The notes beneath the pieces were generated by a model. It did no database searches, had not been told where the DNA came from, and worked only from the letters and a program-made list of their open reading frames with translations. This document shows, piece after piece, positions 6,597-37,806 of a DNA stretch of 64,000 bases. The stretch's first letter is position 1. Each line of letters begins with the position of its first letter. The translations under genes were made by a program, and so were the position numbers. Source of the DNA: Escherichia coli (GTDB lineage: Bacteria > Pseudomonadota > Gammaproteobacteria > Enterobacterales > Enterobacteriaceae); assembly GCF_030013595.1 (NCBI RefSeq), contig NZ_CP122768.1; one strand, written 5' to 3'.

Positions 6597-8837
6597 ATGA
6601 ACAAGAAGATTCATTCCCTGGCCTTGTTGGTCAATCTGGGGATTTATGGGGTAGCACAGGCACAAGAGCCAACCGATACTCCTGTTTCACATGACGATAC
6701 CATTGTCGTTACCGCCGCCGAGCAGAACTTGCAGGCGCCTGGCGTTTCGACCATCACCGCAGATGAAATCCGCAAAAACCCGGTTGCCCGCGATGTGTCG
6801 GAGATCATCCGTACCATGCCAGGCGTTAACCTGATCGGTAACTCCACCAGTGGTCAGCGTGGGAATAACCGACAGATTGATATTCGCGGCATGGGTCCGG
6901 AAAACACGCTGATTTTGATTGACGGCAAGCCGGTAAGCAGCCGTAACTCGGTGCGTCAGGGCTGGCGTGGCGAGCGCGATACCCGTGGTGATACCTCCTG
7001 GGTGCCACCTGAAATGATTGAACGTATTGAAGTTCTGCGTGGTCCGGCGGCTGCGCGTTATGGCAACGGCGCGGCGGGCGGCGTGGTTAACATCATTACC
7101 AAAAAAGGCAGTGGTGAGTGGCACGGCTCCTGGGACGCATATTTCAATGCGCCAGAACATAAAGAGGAAGGTGCCACCAAACGCACTAACTTTAGCCTCA
7201 CCGGTCCGCTGGGCGACGAATTCAGCTTTCGCTTGTATGGCAACCTCGACAAAACTCAGGCTGACGCGTGGGATATCAACCAGGGCCATCAGTCCGCGCG
7301 TGCCGGAACCTATGCCACGACGTTACCAGCCGGGCGCGAAGGGGTGATCAATAAAGATATTAACGGCGTGGTGCGCTGGGACTTCGCACCATTGCAATCG
7401 CTGGAACTGGAAGCGGGTTACAGCCGCCAGGGTAACCTGTATGCGGGCGATACCCAGAACACCAACTCTGACGCTTACACTCGCTCGAAATATGGCGATG
7501 AAACCAACCGTCTGTATCGCCAGAACTACTCGCTGACATGGAACGGCGGCTGGGATAACGGCGTGACCACCAGCAACTGGGTGCAGTACGAACATACCCG
7601 TAACTCGCGTATTCCGGAAGGTCTGGCGGGCGGCACAGAAGGGAAATTTAACGAAAAAGCGACACAGGATTTCGTCGATATCGATCTCGATGACGTGATG
7701 CTGCACAGCGAAGTTAACCTGCCGATTGATTTCCTCGTTAACCAGACGCTGACGCTGGGTACGGAGTGGAATCAGCAGCGGATGAAGGACTTGAGTTCCA
7801 ACACCCAGGCGCTCACCGGGACGAATACCGGCGGCGCTATTGATGGCGTGAGTGCGACAGACCGTAGCCCATATTCAAAAGCAGAAATTTTCTCGCTGTT
7901 TGCCGAAAACAATATGGAGCTGACTGACAGCACCATCGTAACGCCGGGGCTGCGTTTCGATCATCACAGCATTGTTGGCAATAACTGGAGTCCGGCTCTA
8001 AACATATCGCAAGGTTTAGGCGATGACTTCACGCTGAAAATGGGCATTGCCCGTGCTTATAAAGCGCCGAGTCTGTACCAGACTAACCCAAACTACATTC
8101 TCTACAGTAAAGGTCAGGGCTGCTATGCCAGCGCGGGCGGCTGCTATCTGCAAGGTAATGATGACCTGAAAGCGGAAACCAGCATCAACAAAGAGATTGG
8201 TCTGGAGTTCAAACGCGACGGCTGGCTGGCGGGCGTCACCTGGTTCCGTAACGATTATCGCAATAAGATTGAAGCGGGCTATGTGGCTGTAGGGCAAAAC
8301 GCAGTCGGCACCGATCTCTATCAGTGGGATAACGTACCGAAAGCGGTGGTTGAAGGTCTGGAAGGATCGTTAAACGTACCGGTTAGCGAAACGGTGATGT
8401 GGACCAATAACATCACTTATATGCTGAAGAGTGAAAACAAAACCACGGGCGACCGTTTGTCGATCATCCCGGAGTATACGTTGAACTCAACGCTGAGCTG
8501 GCAGGCACGGGAAGATTTGTCGATGCAAACGACCTTCACCTGGTACGGCAAGCAGCAGCCGAAGAAGTACAACTATAAAGGTCAGCCAGCGGTTGGACCG
8601 GAAACCAAAGAAATCAGCCCGTACAGCATTGTTGGCCTGAGCGCGACCTGGGATGTAACGAAGAATGTCAGTCTGACCGGCGGCGTGGACAACCTGTTCG
8701 ACAAACGTTTGTGGCGTGCGGGTAATGCCCAGACCACAGGCGATCTGGCAGGAGCCAACTATATCGCCGGTGCCGGGGCATATACCTATAACGAGCCGGG
8801 ACGTACGTGGTATATGAGCATTAATACTCACTTCTGA
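6597..8837 (+). CDS. fepA: TonB-dependent ferric enterobactin outer-membrane receptor FepA
   Basis: ORF 6537..8837; start taken at MNKKIHSLALLVNLGIYGVAQA (signal peptide), 746 aa; TonB box DTIVVTA, C-terminal aromatic residue (F). Confidence 0.95.
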   Translation: MNKKIHSLALLVNLGIYGVAQAQEPTDTPVSHDDTIVVTAAEQNLQAPGVSTITADEIRKNPVARDVSEIIRTMPGVNLIGNSTSGQRGNNRQIDIRGMGPENTLILIDGKPVSSRNSVRQGWRGERDTRGDTSWVPPEMIERIEVLRGPAAARYGNGAAGGVVNIITKKGSGEWHGSWDAYFNAPEHKEEGATKRTNFSLTGPLGDEFSFRLYGNLDKTQADAWDINQGHQSARAGTYATTLPAGREGVINKDINGVVRWDFAPLQSLELEAGYSRQGNLYAGDTQNTNSDAYTRSKYGDETNRLYRQNYSLTWNGGWDNGVTTSNWVQYEHTRNSRIPEGLAGGTEGKFNEKATQDFVDIDLDDVMLHSEVNLPIDFLVNQTLTLGTEWNQQRMKDLSSNTQALTGTNTGGAIDGVSATDRSPYSKAEIFSLFAENNMELTDSTIVTPGLRFDHHSIVGNNWSPALNISQGLGDDFTLKMGIARAYKAPSLYQTNPNYILYSKGQGCYASAGGCYLQGNDDLKAETSINKEIGLEFKRDGWLAGVTWFRNDYRNKIEAGYVAVGQNAVGTDLYQWDNVPKAVVEGLEGSLNVPVSETVMWTNNITYMLKSENKTTGDRLSIIPEYTLNSTLSWQAREDLSMQTTFTWYGKQQPKKYNYKGQPAVGPETKEISPYSIVGLSATWDVTKNVSLTGGVDNLFDKRLWRAGNAQTTGDLAGANYIAGAGAYTYNEPGRTWYMSINTHF

Positions 8838-8876: not shown

Positions 8877-8974
8877 GCCGGATGCGGCGTGAACGCCTTA
8901 TCCGGCCTACAAAAATCTTGCCAATTCAATATATTGCAGGACCACGTAGGCCTGATAAGCGTAGCGCATCAGGC
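8877..8974. repeat. BIME: two inverted REP elements flanking a short spacer
   Basis: gccggatgcggcgtgaacgccttatccggcctac ... gtaggcctgataagcgtagcgcatcaggc; classic REP consensus in opposite orientations between fepA and entD. Confidence 0.7.
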
Positions 8975-11101: not shown

Positions 11102-11254
11102 CTACTTCTTCGGTTCGTAAGCGAGAACAGCCTTAAACTCAATATTACGTTCCTTCACCGTAAACTCACACAGCGAGTCTCCGACCAGAAGCGTAAATCC
11201 CAGTACCGTCAAACACAGCACTATGACTGCCACAAGGGCATATTTCGTCAGCAT
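11102..11254 (-). CDS. hokE: Hok-family small membrane toxin (type I toxin-antitoxin)
   Basis: 50-aa product [50 protein letters not shown] embedded in a longer leader ORF (mok-like, 11102..11398). IS186 lies 21 bp downstream. Confidence 0.85.
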
Positions 11255-11680
11255 GTTTATATTGCCTCCATGCGAAGAAGGGACTACCATCCAAATTGTC
11301 TGGTTTGGAGTGGCAGCCCCAGGGTTGATAGAAATATCTCCTGGGGCTTCATCTTTCCAGACCTCAGAGTAAACCTGAAACCGGAAAGCTTCAGGCACCC
11401 GCCGTTATCTTACCCTTCCTCAGCAAAATAGCTGTTTATTTATACAGTGAGTCCTGTTTCGGACTTCTCACTCCTCATTTGATCAACTGAAGCTGAACCC
11501 GTTTTTTTCTGCATGCCTCAATCGTCAAAATTCTTCGCCACCAGCCAGCTCTGCCATAACTTGTCACATTGCAGAAGTAGCCAAACTTCTTCAGTCACAA
11601 TCAGTTCACCATCACCAAAAAAAGAAACATTCCAGAACTTCCGCATCTCGCCCAGTCGCTCCCACTTCTATACTGAATAG

Positions 11681-17230: not shown

Positions 17231-20200
17231 TTATTTCCGTACCCGATGTCGGTGCAGCCACATCAGCTTATACGCCGCCGGGATAATAAACAGCGACAGC
17301 AAAGGCGCGGTGATCATGCCGCCAATCATCGGCGCGGCAATCCGGCTCATCACCTCTGAACCTGCTCCCGTTCCCCACAGAATCGGCAGCAGACCAGCGA
17401 TAATCACCGCCACCGTCATCGCTTTCGGGCGCACGCGCAGGACCGCGCCGTGATACAACGCCTCATCCAGCTTCTGCTCGCTGAATGTTTGCGGATTATT
17501 CAACGACGGCTCGGCCTCTATGGCGTGACGTAAATACATCAGCATCACCACGCCAAATTCGGCGGCGACCCCGGCAAGGGCAATAAAACCGGTGCCCGTC
17601 GCCACGGAAAGATGAAAGCCCATCCACCACAGCAACCAGATGCCACCCACCAGCGCAAACGGTACGCTGCTGATAATCAGCAACGCTTCGCCCACCCGAC
17701 GGAACGCCAAATACAACAGCACGAAGATGATCATCAACGTCATCGGCACCATGAGTTTCAGCTTATGGTTGGCGCGTTCCAGTAGCTCGAACTGCCCGGA
17801 GAATGCCACGCTGGTGCCCGGTTTTAACTGTACTTTTTCAGCTATCGCTTTTTGCAGATCGTGAACCACCGACACTATGTCACGATCGCGGGCATCGATA
17901 TAAATCCAGCTCGTCGGGCGCGCATTCTCGGTTTTCAGCATCGACGGTCCGGTAGAGACTTTAACGTCAGCCACGTCTGCCAGGGTGATTTGCTGCTTCA
18001 TCGGCGTCAGAATCGGCAACTGGCGCAGCGCCTGCGGACTATCGCGCCAGCTTTGCGGATAACGCAGATTAATTGGATAACGGGCAATCCCTTCCACCGT
18101 TTCGCCAACCATCGCCCCGCCCACCGCAGATGTCACAAACAATTGCACATCCGCCACCGTCATACCGTAACGCGCGGCTTTTTCACGGTTAATCTCAACG
18201 TTGATATAGCGCCCACCTTCCAGACGCTCGGCAAGCGCAGAAGCTACGCCTGGCACCGTTCGCGCCACTTCTTCAATTTGCTCCGCCATCGCGTCGATAT
18301 CCGCCAGCACAGTGCCGGAAACTTTAATGCCGATGGGGCTTTTAATGCCGGTTGAGAGCATATCGATACGGTTACGAATTGGCGGCACCCACAGATTCGC
18401 CAGCCCCGGCAGACGCACGGTGTTATCCAGTTCCTCAATGATTTTGTCCATCGTCATGCCTGGCCGCCACTGATCTTGTGGCTTAAGCTGGATGGTCGTT
18501 TCTACCATCTCCAGCGGAGCAGAATCGGTGGCGGTTTCCGCTTTCCCGGTTTTGCCAAATACCCGCGCCACTTCAGGTACGCTCATAATCAGCTTGTCGG
18601 TTTTTTGCAGCATACTCGCCGCCTCTGCTGCGGAAATCCCCGGCAGCGTCGATGGCATATACAACAAGTCGCCTTCATTGATCTGCGGTAAAAATTCCCC
18701 GCCAACTTTATTGAGCGGCCAGAGAACCGTCAGCACCGAAAGCGCTGCCACCAGCAGCGTGGTTTTTGGCCAGTGCAGTACTTTCAGCAACAGCGGATGA
18801 TAAGCACGAATCAAAAAGCGATTGAGCGGGTTACTGCTTTCTGGCGGAATTTTGCCACGGATCCAGTAACCCATCAGGATAGGGATCACTATGATCGCCA
18901 GCAGCGCCGCACCCGCCATCGCATACGTTTTGGTGAACGCCAGCGGGCCAAACAGACGCCCTTCCTGCCCTTCCAGGGTGAAGATCGGGATAAACGACAA
19001 CGTGATAATCAGCAGACTGATAAACAACGCCGGACCCACTTCAACAGACGCATCGGTGATCACCTGCCAGCGCGTTTTATTATCCAGCGTGGCGTCAGGA
19101 TGCTGGTGCTGCCACTCTTCCAGCCGTTTATGCGCATTCTCGATCATGACGATAGCGGCATCGACCATCGCCCCGACGGCAATCGCAATGCCGCCCAGCG
19201 ACATAATATTGGCGTTCAGTCCCTGAAATTGCATGACAATAAAAGCAATACACAACCCCAGCGGCAACGAAATAATCGCCACCAGCGCCGAGCGCACATG
19301 CCAGAGAAACAGCGCACAGACTACCGCCACCACAATAAACTCTTCCAGCAACTTGCCGCTGAGGTTGTCGATGGCGCGGTCAATGAGCTGGCTGCGATCG
19401 TATGTTGTAACTATCTCCACGCCTTCCGGCAGACTACTTTTCAGCGTTTCCAGTTTGTCTTTCACGGCGGCGATCACTTCTCGGGCGTTTTTGCCGGAGC
19501 GCAGGATCACCACCCCGCCCGCCACTTCGCCTTCGCCGTTCAGTTCGGCAATGCCCCGGCGCATCTCCGGGCCAATCTGGACCTTCGCAACATCGCGCAG
19601 ATAAACGGGCACGCCATTTTCACTGGCTTTTAAAACGATGTGATTAAAGTCGTCGAGCGTTTGCAGATAGCCGCTGGCGCGCACCATATATTCCGCTTCC
19701 GCCAGTTCGATCGACGAACCGCCCGCTTCCTGGTTTGAAGCATCCAGCGCGCTTTTTACTTCGGCGAGACTGATGCCATATTGCGCCAGGCGCTGAGGAT
19801 CGATAACCACCTGATACTCTTTCACCACACCGCCTACCGACGCCACTTCCGCAACGTCAGGAATGGTTTTCAGCTCATATTTGAGAAACCAGTCCTGCAA
19901 TGAGCGTAAATCGGCAAGATCGTGCTTACCGCTGCGATCCACCAGTGCATATTCATAGATCCAGCCAACACCCGTGGCATCTGGCCCCAGCTCGGCGCTG
20001 ACTCCCGCAGGGAGCTTACCCTGTACCTGGTTGAGGTACTCCAGCACCCGCGAACGCGCCCAGTACGGATCGGTGCCATCTTCGAAAATGACATACACAT
20101 AAGAGTCGCCAAACTGCGAGAAACCGCGCACAGTCTTCGCGCCAGGCACCGACAACATGGTGGTGGTTAGCGGATAAGTCACCTGATTTTCAACGATTTG

Positions 20201-20374
20201 CGGTGCCTGACCGGGATAGCTGGTTTTAATAATCACCTGCACATCGGAGAGATCCGGCAGCGCATCCACTGGCGTGTTAATGATGGTCCAGGTGCCCCAG
20301 ATACTCAGAAACAACGCGCCCATCAGTACCAGAAAACGGTTCGCCACCGAGCGACGAATAATCCATTCAATCAT
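17231..20374 (-). CDS. cusA: RND copper/silver efflux pump, inner-membrane transporter CusA
   Basis: 1047-aa [32 protein letters not shown]... Confidence 0.95.
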
Positions 20375-20385
20375 TGGTTATTCCC

Positions 20386-21609
20386 TCAATGCGCATGGGT
20401 AGCACTTTCAGAGCGAATCCGCTCCAGTGCGCCAGAAATATTGGCTTCGGAATCAATCAGGAACAGGCCGCTGGAAACCACCTTTTCACCTTCCGCCAGA
20501 CCAGAGCGTAACGCGGTGACGCCTTGCGATGCCTGGAAAACGGCAACGCGTTTCGGTACAAAGCGCCCGTCGGCATCAACGGTAATCACCCGCTGTTCGC
20601 TGCCGGTATCAATCAGCGCTTGTGACGGAATGAGCAGCATCGGTTCGCTGGCGGTGTTGAGTTGCAACCAGGCGTTCATTCCCGGCTTTAGCGCCTCGTC
20701 GGTGTTGTCGACTTCCAGGCGCAACTGCAGCGTGCGGGTCGCGGCATCCACGCCAGGTAGTAGCGTCCATTTGCGAATGGTGAGTGTTTTATCCGGTCGC
20801 GCCGGAACGGTGAGCGTAAACTGCGAGGCATCTTTCACCAGCCAGGCGATGGACTCCGGGATCGCAGCAGTGACCCACACCGGATCCATACCCTGAATTT
20901 TCGCTACCACGTTATCTTTGGCGATATTCATTCCCGCGCGCAGATCAAACGCGGTGATCACGCCATCAATGGGTGCTTTGAGCGTAAAGCGAGTCTGGAT
21001 TTTTTGCGTGGCAATCAGGCGGCGAATATCCGCCTCCGGCATTCCCGCCAGTCGCAGTCGCTCAAGAATGCCTTCAGTCTGGGTCGCCGTACCGCCGGTT
21101 TCGCGCAGCAGTAAATACTCACTCTGCGCTTCCACCCAGTCAGGAATGGTCAGGTCGAGAAGCGGCGCGCCCTTTTGTACTTTATCGCCCACGGTAAGCG
21201 GATACACCTTGTCGATAAACCCGGCGGCGCGGGCCTGCACAATGGCATACTGATACTCGTTGTAACTGACATTCGCCGGGAAACTCTGGGAAAAAGTCAG
21301 CGGCCCGCGCGTGACGGTAGCCGTTTTCACCCCCAGATTCTGCGTCTGAGTCGGGTCAATGCGCACACCAGACGCAGAACTCTCTTCATCGGCATATTTC
21401 GGCACCAGATCCATATCCATAAACGGCGATTTACCTGGTTTATCGAACCGCGTATTGGGATACATCGGGTCGTACCAGAATAATATTTTACGTTCTGCGG
21501 TCGACGTTTTTTCTGCGGGCGGTTCCGCCTTTGCAAACCAGGTAAAACCTGCCGCAGAAATAATACCGCCCGCGATCATGCTGCCGATAATAAGCGCGAT
21601 TTTTTTCAT
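20386..21609 (-). CDS. cusB: Copper/silver efflux membrane fusion protein CusB
   Basis: 407-aa ORF MKKIALIIGSMIAGGIISAAGFTWFAKAEPP... Confidence 0.95.
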   Translation of the reverse strand: MKKIALIIGSMIAGGIISAAGFTWFAKAEPPAEKTSTAERKILFWYDPMYPNTRFDKPGKSPFMDMDLVPKYADEESSASGVRIDPTQTQNLGVKTATVTRGPLTFSQSFPANVSYNEYQYAIVQARAAGFIDKVYPLTVGDKVQKGAPLLDLTIPDWVEAQSEYLLLRETGGTATQTEGILERLRLAGMPEADIRRLIATQKIQTRFTLKAPIDGVITAFDLRAGMNIAKDNVVAKIQGMDPVWVTAAIPESIAWLVKDASQFTLTVPARPDKTLTIRKWTLLPGVDAATRTLQLRLEVDNTDEALKPGMNAWLQLNTASEPMLLIPSQALIDTGSEQRVITVDADGRFVPKRVAVFQASQGVTALRSGLAEGEKVVSSGLFLIDSEANISGALERIRSESATHAH

Positions 21610-21624
21610 CTCATTAAACCTGGG

Positions 21625-21957
21625 TTACTGGCTGACTTTAATATCCTGTAATAAAGAAAGGTTGCCCTGCTGGACAAAATTAAACGCCACTTTGTCGCCG
21701 GTTTTAATTTCACTCATTTTCGTCTGCGGGGTGATGGTAAAGCGCATGGTCATCTCCGGCCAGTTCACGGCTGCAATCGGATCGTGATGGATGGTGATTT
21801 TTTTGCTTTCCAGATCAACACCTTTTACCACGCCAGTGGCGCTAATAACCTGTTGTTGTGCTTCGCTCATGGTTTCATGATGATGTTCGTTAGCCTGGGC
21901 ATTAAAGCCAATAACGGTAAACAGACTAAACATTGCGACTTGCAGTGCTTTTTTCAT
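21625..21957 (-). CDS. cusF: Periplasmic copper/silver chaperone CusF
   Basis: 110-aa ORF with signal peptide MKKALQVAMFSLFTVIGFNAQANEHHHETMSEAQ... Confidence 0.95.
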   Translation of the reverse strand: MKKALQVAMFSLFTVIGFNAQANEHHHETMSEAQQQVISATGVVKGVDLESKKITIHHDPIAAVNWPEMTMRFTITPQTKMSEIKTGDKVAFNFVQQGNLSLLQDIKVSQ

Positions 21958-21980
21958 TTATTCTCTCCTGGAGTTAAAAA

Positions 21981-23363
21981 TTATTGCTGCCAACCGCCCC
22001 CTAAGGCGGTATATAAAGAAATTTCGTTAACCTGACGGGCATAATTCAGGTCAAGTAAAGTTTGTCGGGTTGCAAATAAAGAACGCTCAGCATCCAGCAC
22101 TTCCAGATAGCTTACTGCGCCGTGCTGATATAATGCCCGCGCCCGTTGCAGGGTAATTTGCAGCGACGCCAGATAACGCTGCTGGGCGCTGATTTGATCG
22201 TTCAGGCTTTGACGTAATGCCAGCGCATCTGCCACTTCTTTAAAGGCGTTCTGGATTTTCTGTTCATAATTCACCACCGACTGCTGCTGGCGAATTTCGG
22301 CGATATCCAGATTGGCCTGGTTACGTTCGGCATTAAAAATGGGGATCTCAATTTTGGGTATAAAATTCCACATCCCGCTGCTGGCGTTAAATAATGACGA
22401 CAGATCGCTGCTGGCGGTTGATATTCCGCTGGTCAGGCTGATAGACGGGAAAAATGCCGCGCGTGCAGCACCAATATTGGCATTAGCCGCCATTAACGCA
22501 TGTTCAGCTTCCATAATATCCGGGCGCTGCAATAAGATTTGCGACGACAAGCCCGCCGGTAATTTAACGCTTTGCAGGCTGTCGCTGTTTACTGTCTGCG
22601 CTTGCGGCAGCTTGCCGTAGCTTCCCAATAACAGTTGCAATGCATTATTCGCCTGCGCCAGTTCCCCCTGACGTTTAGCGATGTCGCTACGGGTACTTTC
22701 AATCACCCCGCGAGCCTGTTCCAGCGCCAGAACATTACTGCTACCTGTCAACAGTTGTTTTTCAACAAACGCATATGACTGCTGATAATTACGCAGCGTT
22801 TCTTCGGCTATTTGTAATTGTGCATAAGCCAGTTGCTGATTGAAATAGCTTTGTGCGACATTAGAAACCAGCAGAATATGCACCGCGCGCTGGGCTTCCT
22901 CAGTGGCTAAATAATTTTGGCGCTCGGCTTCGCTCATGTTCTTTAAGCGACCGAAAAAATCGAGATCAAAGCTGGCGTTAAGGCCAGTCGAGAACTCCCG
23001 CGTCGAGGCTGAATCGCCTTTAAGATTGCCGCTCCAGCTGCCGCTGCCCTCGCCATTGAGCTGTGGGTAGCGGTCGGCATCGGTCAGACGATATTGCGCC
23101 CGCGCTTCCTGCACTTTCAGCGTCGCCATGCGCAAATCCCGGTTATTCACCAGCGCCTCGCTAATCAGCGTCTTCACCTGATTATCAACAAAAAAGGTGC
23201 GCCAGCCCGCGTTCTGGTAGTTATCTGCTGCGTTAACCAGGCCGTTCTGGTTGAGTGAGAACTGCTGCGGCACGGGCATTGCCGGGCGCTGATAATCCGG
23301 TGCCAGTGAACAACCGGTTAGCGCAAGGGCCACACAAAATGGCAGAAGTTTACAAGGAGACAT
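21981..23363 (-). CDS. cusC: Outer-membrane efflux channel CusC (lipoprotein)
   Basis: 460-aa ORF MSPCKLLPFCVALALTGCSLAPDYQRP... (lipobox LTGC). Confidence 0.95.
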   Translation of the reverse strand: MSPCKLLPFCVALALTGCSLAPDYQRPAMPVPQQFSLNQNGLVNAADNYQNAGWRTFFVDNQVKTLISEALVNNRDLRMATLKVQEARAQYRLTDADRYPQLNGEGSGSWSGNLKGDSASTREFSTGLNASFDLDFFGRLKNMSEAERQNYLATEEAQRAVHILLVSNVAQSYFNQQLAYAQLQIAEETLRNYQQSYAFVEKQLLTGSSNVLALEQARGVIESTRSDIAKRQGELAQANNALQLLLGSYGKLPQAQTVNSDSLQSVKLPAGLSSQILLQRPDIMEAEHALMAANANIGAARAAFFPSISLTSGISTASSDLSSLFNASSGMWNFIPKIEIPIFNAERNQANLDIAEIRQQQSVVNYEQKIQNAFKEVADALALRQSLNDQISAQQRYLASLQITLQRARALYQHGAVSYLEVLDAERSLFATRQTLLDLNYARQVNEISLYTALGGGWQQ

Positions 23364-23432
23364 AGGCTCATAATTTCTGGTGATTTTATGCCGCCAACTT
23401 TACTCGCCAGGCTCTGATTTTCCGGTGACAGG

Positions 23433-23454
23433 AAAATGACAAAATTGTCATTTT
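23433..23454. promoter_or_regulatory. CusR box (perfect palindrome) in the cusC / cusR divergent promoter
   Basis: aaaatgacaaaattgtcatttt, a 22-bp sequence whose two halves are exact reverse complements, between divergent cusC and cusR. Confidence 0.75.
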
Positions 23455-23519
23455 GCCAATAAGCGATTGCCATCTGATCCCGCTACTCTAGAATTGCCCG
23501 GGCAACATGCGGAGGAAAT

Positions 23520-37221: not shown

Positions 37222-37806
37222 TTACTCCCTGACAGGGTTCGTAGGCCACTCAATATCAGGTGCAGTTGATGTATCAACACGGTTCAGCAACACCCGATAC
37301 TTTTTCCAGGCTTCCAGCAACGAGGTTTCTCCCTCCGTTGCGATTTCCAGATCTGCAGCATCCTGAAGTGGCGCAATATGCTCACTGGCTACCTGCATCA
37401 GGCTGTTTTTTGTTTCTTCCGCCTCCCGGATCCGGAACAGTTTTTCTGCTTCTGCATCTTTCACCCAGGTTGTGCCGTTCCACTTCTGAAACTCCCCTTC
37501 CGGGGATAACCAGGTGACATTTTCCGGTAATGAGCCGAGTTCAGAAATAAATAACGCGTCGCCGGAAGCCACGTCATAGACGGTTTTACCCCGATGGTCT
37601 TCAACGAGATGCCACGATGCCTCATCACTGTTGAAAACAGCCACAAAGCCAGCCGGAATATCTGGCGGTGCAATATCGGTACTGTTTGCTGGCAGACCTG
37701 TATGAGGCGGAATATATGCGTCACCTTCACCAATAAATTCATTAGTTCCGGCCAGCAGATTATAAATTTTTATGGTCCGTGGTTGTTCACTCATTCTGAA
37801 TGCCAT
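37222..37806 (-). CDS. tfa: Tail fibre assembly protein (lambda Tfa-like)
   Basis: 194-aa [42 protein letters not shown]... with C-terminal conserved block; start overlaps stf stop. Confidence 0.9.

Follow-up and report, generated by a model that had tools for sequence, protein, structure and literature searches.

The cus locus and its intergenic spacer

The stretch of Escherichia coli DNA analysed here, 64 kb in length and referred to below as the window, carries the chromosomal cus locus. In the RefSeq annotation the gene order is ybdG, pheP, cusA, cusB, cusF and cusC on the minus strand, followed by cusR, cusS, nfrB, nfrA and ybcH on the plus strand. Positions 23364-23519 are exactly the spacer between cusC and cusR, which is 156 bp long according to the list of open reading frames, and the RefSeq layout agrees. 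The coordinates of the genes and of the features discussed in this paper, together with the protein family matches of the gene products, are collected in Table 1.

A 301-bp query across the spacer finds many E. coli chromosomes at 100% identity, with the annotation cusC on one side and cusR on the other, and it detects the locus in 5335 of 5426 complete genomes of the species. The regulator of the E. coli genomes examined is the protein WP_000770953.1.

Table 1. Genes, regulatory elements and predicted promoters of the cus locus, in window coordinates.
Feature	Coordinates	Strand	Description
cusCFBA operon	17231-23363	-	ORFs, RefSeq annotation, NCBIfam
cusA	17231-20374	-	cusCFBA operon
cusB	20386-21609	-	cusCFBA operon
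cusF	21625-21957	-	cusCFBA operon; product matches NCBIfam NF007348, 205.5 bits (cut-off 143)
cusC	21981-23363	-	460-aa ORF; product matches NCBIfam NF007347, 898 bits (cut-off 598)
Predicted cusC -10	23397-23402	-	TAAAGT, from cross-locus column conservation; start placed at about 23389-23391
H0	23414-23418	.	possible fourth block, CTGAT (family CTGnC), 11-12 bp further toward cusC; weaker call
Pho-box-like direct repeat	23424-23441	-	TGTCAT-TTTC-CTGTCACC; combines H1 with the left arm of the CusR box; published PhoB ChIP-seq motif
H1	23426-23430	.	third half-site, TGACA; forms a direct repeat with the TGACA of the left arm at 11 bp, cusC side
CusR box	23433-23454	.	hyphenated inverted repeat AAAATGACAA-AA-TTGTCATTTT; identical to published consensus
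H2	23437-23441		core half-site TGACA, left arm of CusR box
H3	23447-23451		core half-site TGTCA, right arm of CusR box
Predicted cusR promoter	23467-23494	+	TTGCCA (23467-23472), 16-nt spacer, TAGAAT (23489-23494); 10 of 12 consensus positions
cusRS operon	23520-25635	+	ORFs, RefSeq annotation, NCBIfam
cusR	23520-24203	+	227-aa ORF; product matches NCBIfam NF007346 (equivalog), 507.9 bits (cut-off 420), and TIGR01387 (heavy-metal response regulator subfamily), 323.9 bits (cut-off 279.2)
cusS	24193-25635	+	cusRS operon; product matches NCBIfam NF007345, 979 bits (cut-off 423)

Elsewhere in the window, nfrB (plus strand), the gene for the phage N4 adsorption protein (a glycosyltransferase activated by c-di-GMP), has an in-frame TGA at 26535-26537 where a reference genome has TTA (Leu). 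The single change, T>G at 26536, breaks this gene of 745 aa into two ORFs, of 250 aa and 485 aa. None of the best full-length matches listed, from 5040 complete E. coli genomes, is identical to the window over the 60 nt around the TGA, and the TGA is thus a nonsense mutation, rare or confined to this strain, or else an error of sequencing. Three regions match Rfam families at the gathering score and are unrelated to the CusR box: the sok antitoxin RNA (11246-11400, minus strand, 83.7 bits), the sRNA ES036/CssrF (8912-8953, plus strand, 42.2 bits) and IS009 (37265-37463, minus strand, 225.7 bits).

A hyphenated inverted repeat midway between cusC and cusR

The 22-mer at 23433-23454 of the spacer is AAAATGACAAAATTGTCATTTT; a direct read-out of exactly these positions gives aaaatgacaaaattgtcatttt, and the surrounding letters of the window are ...ccggtgacaggAAAATGACAAAATTGTCATTTTgccaataag.... 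A repeat finder resolves the 22-mer into two arms of 10 nt each (23433-23442 and 23445-23454), which are 100% complementary and separated by a gap of 2 nt. The first-pass annotation had called this element a perfect 22-bp palindrome. The two exact arms bear that description out, but the central AA (23443-23444) is unpaired, so that 20 of the 22 positions are palindromic. Since the central AA is not self-complementary, the element is a hyphenated 10+2+10 inverted repeat and no strict palindrome of 22 bp. Its placement midway between cusC and cusR, as the same annotation had it, is accurate: the centre of the repeat (23443.5) lies 2 bp from the centre of the spacer (23441.5).

Repeats of this quality are rare. 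Across the 64-kb window there is just one perfect inverted repeat with arms of at least 10 nt and a spacer of at most 6 nt, against an expectation of 0.35 per 64 kb under dinucleotide-preserving shuffles, and an equivalent repeat appeared in 11 of 5000 shuffled versions of the 156-bp spacer. The consensus AAAATGACAANNTTGTCATTTT fits 23433-23454 with 0 mismatches; when up to 3 mismatches are allowed it occurs once in the window, compared with 0.02 occurrences expected. A 30-mer that includes the box has a median of 1 location per E. coli genome; for the uniqueness of the bare 22-mer in the genome as a whole we rely on the ChIP-chip literature.

Identity of the repeat as the CusR box

The published CusR box of E. 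coli is given, in the portion of the literature on which we draw, as AAAATGACAAnnTTGTCATTTT, sited between cusRS and cusC(F)BA, with Yamamoto and Ishihama (2005) and Munson et al. (2000) cited as its sources. All 20 positions specified by the K-12 box are the same in the window, and nothing inside the box differs. As in K-12, the site is flanked by cusRS and cusCFBA, which diverge from it, and the regulator protein is the same. Just outside the box, position 23432 is an A in K-12 and in strain M3, and a G in the window.

What is known of binding and induction at this site comes from several published studies. At 2 mM copper, ChIP-chip found one sole CusR peak in the entire genome, namely at the cusC-cusR spacer, and copper induced a cusR-lacZ fusion only when cusRS was present. 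Genomic SELEX placed both CusR and HprR on the same spacer, and a genomic SELEX report describes unphosphorylated CusR as binding at the cus spacer only, an interaction presented as repression, which goes beyond a simple activator model. With 2 mM copper, a mutational information footprint of the cusC promoter revealed an activator site; in the same mutational-scanning study, CusR was not among the proteins that DNA-affinity mass spectrometry recovered from a copper-grown lysate. A PcusC-gfp reporter is silent without CusRS, and the plasmid gene pcoE is under CusR control by way of TGACAAnnTTGTCAT. According to the accepted model, activated CusR on the box turns both operons on.

We conclude, with a probability of about 95%, that the repeat at 23433-23454 is the CusR box belonging to the chromosomal cus locus of E. 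coli, where the evidence of binding and expression is that of the literature. The function first proposed for the repeat, a response-regulator site for copper/silver induction of both operons, is supported by the exact match to the published box, by ChIP-chip and SELEX, by the CusRS-dependent induction reported in the literature, and by the comparison with family motifs described in the next section. The box is already known; it is a textbook operator, and its confirmation in this window brings nothing new. The main periplasmic copper/silver efflux system of E. coli is controlled from this box, which is also in use in metal biosensors, and mutation of cusS, in the CusS-CusR pathway that acts through the box, is a frequent route to silver resistance.

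What our analysis adds is limited to two points: the element is longer than the palindrome on the cusC side, and HprR and PhoB share its DNA. The operator does not end with the palindrome, since it has further conserved half-sites towards cusC, and the box DNA serves HprR and PhoB as well as CusR.

Conservation of the box across relatives and within E. coli

The comparison with other boxes of the CusR/CopR family, which the first-pass annotation had named as a check, came out in favour of its reading: the core is shared across relatives, sil, silE and hprR/hiuH. We searched 80 loci with CusR relatives, taken from among the matches listed on one-genome-per-species contigs; this sample is arbitrary but adequate for a family-wide test of the motif, and Citrobacter werkmanii is the one enterobacterial orthologue in it among the matches listed. 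The motif AT[G/T]ACA[A/T]NN[A/T]TGT[A/C]AT was sought within 400 nt upstream of each regulator gene. A core with at most 2 mismatches was present in 27 of the 40 relatives with usable upstream DNA (loci L002-L042, 51-98% identity to CusR, among the matches listed), and one more distant locus, L068, has such a core as well. In control coding DNA of equal length, no core with at most 2 mismatches was found in 79 loci, the best having 3 mismatches. Most cores are located 50-122 nt before the start codon of the regulator gene, and the core of the window, ATGACAAAATTGTCAT, which has 0 mismatches to the family core and lies upstream of a TIGR01387-type regulator gene, is 84 nt from the ATG of cusR.

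The family core is also present in the spacer of sil, as ATAATGACAATGTTGTCATTTT at 86 nt from silR, in the hiuH-hprR spacer, as CATTACAATTTTGTAATG, and upstream of silE, as ATGACAAAGATGTCAT. When the cus spacers of C. werkmanii and the window are aligned, conservation extends from about 23422 through the predicted cusR promoter, while the cusC-proximal part has diverged; the box of C. werkmanii departs from that of the window at one position, 23446, with C in place of T.

Of 5426 complete E. coli genomes, 5157 contain the whole box within an exact match of 28 nt or more, and the variants sampled lie mostly just outside the box, at 23432 and 23459. Both positions are common polymorphisms of the species (loci L084 and L086); at the latter the window has A and strain UTAK-1 has C. 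Some difference from the window within 23410-23469 is seen in about 37% of genomes, and about 180 genomes have the locus without the exact 28-nt stretch over the box. In E. coli LR-29-1 (L085), a C>T change at the equivalent of 23440 converts TGACA into TGATA and breaks a core half-site position.

An extended element on the cusC side

We aligned 20 independent sites that had been selected on the palindrome only. On the flank that faces away from the regulator gene, in columns -11 to -7, this alignment contains a cTGAC block, with C in 12, T in 16, G in 13, A in 17 and C in 18 of the 20 sites; its counterpart in the window is the third half-site, H1. The same half-site is kept in the cus spacer of C. 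werkmanii and in sil, appears as TTACA in hprR/hiuH, and is mirrored upstream of silE. Farther out, in columns -22 to -18, lies a CTGnC block (C in 17, T in 11 and G in 12 sites, then C at -18 in 18 of 20). The corresponding H0 of the window agrees with this block in its C, T and G, which is three of the four conserved letters, and has a T where 18 of the 20 sites have C. The letters CTCTG are kept in C. werkmanii and in sil. By contrast with these conserved blocks, the regulator-facing flank of the 20 aligned sites holds nothing comparable.

Still farther along the same side, in columns -39 to -34, a -10-like hexamer of the form nAnnnT (read on the opposite strand) is found in 19 of 24 sites and is one base off in two more. 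The TAAAGT of the window occupies these very columns, and so stands at the same distance from the repeat as in the 19 family sites. At 17 of the 20 sites, an ORF of 100 aa or more starts divergently within 300 nt on the target side. Judged by this alignment, the conserved element reaches beyond the palindrome toward cusC.

The box upstream of silE (positions 8466-8491 of locus L082, on plasmid pGD31-F1928) has an extra TGTCA 11 bp away, on the silE side, which mirrors the cusC-side layout; this arrangement fits an extra half-site as the marker of the activated direction. We had at one point regarded H1 as a possibly new observation and dropped that claim, as the half-site is already described for LciR, for P. 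putida CopR and in the PhoB motif.

The leader and promoter region of cusC also contains a direct repeat of 20 nt with 80% identity, 23364-23383 and 23409-23428 (AGGCTCATAATTTCTGGTGA and AGGCTCTGATTTTCCGGTGA), the two copies being 45 bp apart. Repeats of about 20 nt in two copies often arise by chance, and this one is probably such a case. Its second copy (23409-23428) contains the H0 and H1 blocks.

Predicted promoters on either side of the box

A consensus promoter scan of the spacer finds no full sigma-70 promoter and no -35 match on the cusC side, and so the -10 of cusC was placed by cross-locus conservation. For example, ACTTTA, which is this -10 on the other strand, is kept in C. werkmanii and in sil although the flanks diverge. 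A promoter without a recognisable -35 is what one would expect if cusC depends on an activator. Relative to the cusC start predicted in this way, the centre of the box would lie at about -53, H1 at about -40 to -36, and H0 at about -28 to -24.

On the opposite side, the predicted promoter of cusR is nearly the same in C. werkmanii, which has TTGCTA and TAGAAT. The centre of the box is predicted to lie about 57 nt upstream of the start of cusR. A near-consensus promoter with the box at about -57 fits basal expression of cusR plus a moderate boost.

Other regulators on the same DNA and alternative explanations

The regulators HprR and PhoB have both been placed on this DNA. A genomic SELEX study reports that HprR recognises the same sequence as CusR, with a different affinity. 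In K-12, a ChIP-seq study of PhoB gives its motif at cusR/cusC as TGTCATTTTTCTGTCACC and finds cusC to be positively regulated by PhoB, with expression more than 2-fold lower in a phoB deletion; an earlier study had reported a PhoB ChIP-chip peak in the cus spacer together with a gel shift (EMSA). The minus strand of 23424-23441 in the window is TGTCATTTTCCTGTCACC, and it differs from the K-12 PhoB motif at one base, 23432, inside the 4-bp spacer of the motif. Since the two are otherwise identical, PhoB would use the left arm and H1 as a direct repeat, whereas CusR and HprR would use the inverted pair. Regulators of the OmpR/PhoB family are usually found on direct repeats, in contrast to the inverted repeat at the CusR box.

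The Pho box consensus is CTGTCAT-A(AT)A(TA)-CTGT(CA)A(CT). On its minus strand the window has two TGTCA units 11 bp apart, in the arrangement TGTCAT-TTTC-CTGTCAC(C); the motif overlaps one arm of the palindrome only, and its spacer is less A/T-rich in the window strain. A canonical Pho box stands about 10 bp upstream of the -10 and replaces the -35. The motif in the window ends 21 bp from the predicted -10 (23402 versus 23424), about one helical turn further than that, and the canonical position, insofar as it is reckoned from the predicted -10, is taken at cusC by the blocks at 23426-23430 and 23414-23418.

One alternative is that the repeat is mainly a site for PhoB (phosphate starvation) or for HprR (H2O2/HOCl), with copper control by CusR being secondary. 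The ChIP-seq and ChIP-chip peaks of PhoB, the gel shift, the lower expression of cusC in a phoB deletion and the closeness of the minus-strand TGTCAT-TTTC-CTGTCAC to the Pho box consensus all speak for such a reading, as does the fact that the strongest HprR peak in genomic SELEX is the cusC-cusR spacer. However, the box is conserved beside regulator genes of the CusR/CopR family in many bacteria, whatever PhoB does, and copper induction is strictly CusRS-dependent in the literature. The PhoB motif comprises only the left arm and 23426-23430, and thus leaves the conserved right arm unexplained, and the enrichment of PhoB at cus in ChIP is low (3, versus 14-20 for phoE and phoA). We consider a primarily PhoB or HprR site very unlikely; PhoB and HprR add inputs to the box and do not replace CusR.

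The remaining two alternatives dispense with a protein altogether. If the repeat were an RNA or DNA hairpin, such as a terminator or attenuator between the operons, one would point to its capacity to fold on either strand (about -10.9 kcal/mol, z-score -3.0 to -3.6 versus shuffles) and to the UUUU that follows the hairpin on the plus strand. Its stem, however, is A/U-rich with two G-C pairs only, and the related loci conserve the letters of the half-sites, beyond mere pairing, while the central spacer varies. The spacer gave no terminator-like sites in a terminator scan and no RNA families in Rfam. Moreover, the repeat is upstream of both predicted starts and so should not be transcribed. An intrinsic terminator was rejected on these grounds, namely the lack of a G+C-rich stem, the lack of a scan match and the position upstream of both predicted starts, and we regard a hairpin of any kind as extremely improbable. 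The notion of a functionless palindrome that arose by chance draws on the A+T richness of the spacer and on nothing more. It is at odds with the scarcity of equivalent repeats among shuffled spacers and with the presence of a sole one in 64 kb, and it is refuted by the conservation of the box in more than 5100 E. coli genomes, in C. werkmanii, in sil and, as the core motif, across the family; its likelihood is negligible.

A proposed mode of action

The literature supplies the first steps of the mechanism that we propose for the CusR box. Periplasmic Cu(I) or Ag(I) activates the kinase CusS, which then phosphorylates CusR, a regulator of the OmpR/PhoB family; CusR on the TGACA/TGTCA half-sites in turn activates the promoters of cusCFBA and cusRS, the latter amounting to positive autoregulation. 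The subsequent steps are suggested by the layout of the spacer. The cusC promoter would combine a weak -10 (TAAAGT) with no -35, and H1 and H0, in 11-bp phase, would occupy the stretch from the palindrome to the -10. The two blocks probably bring additional CusR subunits to the -35 region, where these would contact RNA polymerase at PcusC, and thereby probably give a palindrome that is itself bidirectional a strong output toward cusC. On the cusR side, where the core promoter is near consensus and the box lies at about -57, CusR may provide a boost only.

Taken one step further, these observations suggest an integrated picture, which we advance tentatively and regard as possible rather than probable. 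Four half-sites arrayed on one face over about 48 bp, 23414-23451 (about -61 to -24 of PcusC), may together form the functional unit. Three paralogous regulators would read different pairs of them: for CusR and HprR this would be the inverted pair, for PhoB the direct pair formed by 23426-23430 and 23437-23441. In such an array the cusC-side blocks would set direction and strength, and alleles such as 23432 G/A and 23440 C>T might tune the copper, oxidant and phosphate inputs between lineages. The ingredients of this array have each been published separately; the integrated logic and the effects of the alleles are our proposal.

Comparison with known systems

Close relatives of the cus arrangement are found on plasmids. 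The SilR box of the sil spacer, GGTGACAGGATAATGACAATGTTGTCATTTT, has the same arms, an extra TGACA 11 bp away, and ACTTTA at the same distance. We read this spacer directly; a BLAST search of the cus spacer against plasmids matched sil via the coding part of silC only. The boxes of sil and silE differ from that of the window in the central dinucleotide, which is TG or AG rather than AA, and at the outer arm positions (ATAATG), with 9 of 10 arm pairs kept. In contrast to cus, sil and silE/pcoE are plasmid-borne and belong to other regulators and operons.

The box between hiuH and hprR, CATTACAAAATTGTAATG, which is reported to be bound by both CusR and HprR, has the same architecture. Its arms are 7-8 nt long and enclose a centre of 2 nt; a further TTACA lies 11 bp off, toward the target gene, and the columns of the -10-like hexamer are the same. 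It differs from cus in its half-sites (TTACA/TGTAA versus TGACA/TGTCA), in its shorter arms and in its primary signal, which is H2O2/HOCl.

In Pseudomonas, the palindrome of CusR, CopR and CzcR is printed as ATTCATnnATGTAAT, with CTGACAn5GTAAT as the CopR consensus and TGACA-N4-TGTCA as a further form, and it too is a hyphenated palindrome in the spacer between a divergent regulator and its target. The palindrome is common to several paralogous regulators, and its mutation abolishes activation; the footprints of P. putida CopR cover 27-47 bp and several TGACA-like half-sites. The letters of the half-sites and the partners in cross-talk differ from those of E. coli cus.

An extended element has also been dissected in Legionella pneumophila. 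The LciR element consists of a 7-bp inverted repeat, ATTACAAnnTTGTAAT, and two short conserved blocks that stand, precisely spaced, between this repeat and the -10 of the target (Linsky et al. 2020, PMC6989116). Mutation of each of its four parts abolished copper induction or nearly did so, and E. coli CusRS is able to drive the Legionella LciR promoter (PMC6989116). LciR is without autoregulation, whereas cusR of E. coli is induced by copper, and its target is a secreted effector gene as opposed to an efflux pump. The same study describes this layout for homologues as well, CusR included, and proposes that the short blocks steer activation to the target gene and away from the regulator gene (PMC6989116). 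The window has the same layout, with H0 as an imperfect match to the second block, and H1 corresponds to one of the "two shorter conserved sequences" of LciR.
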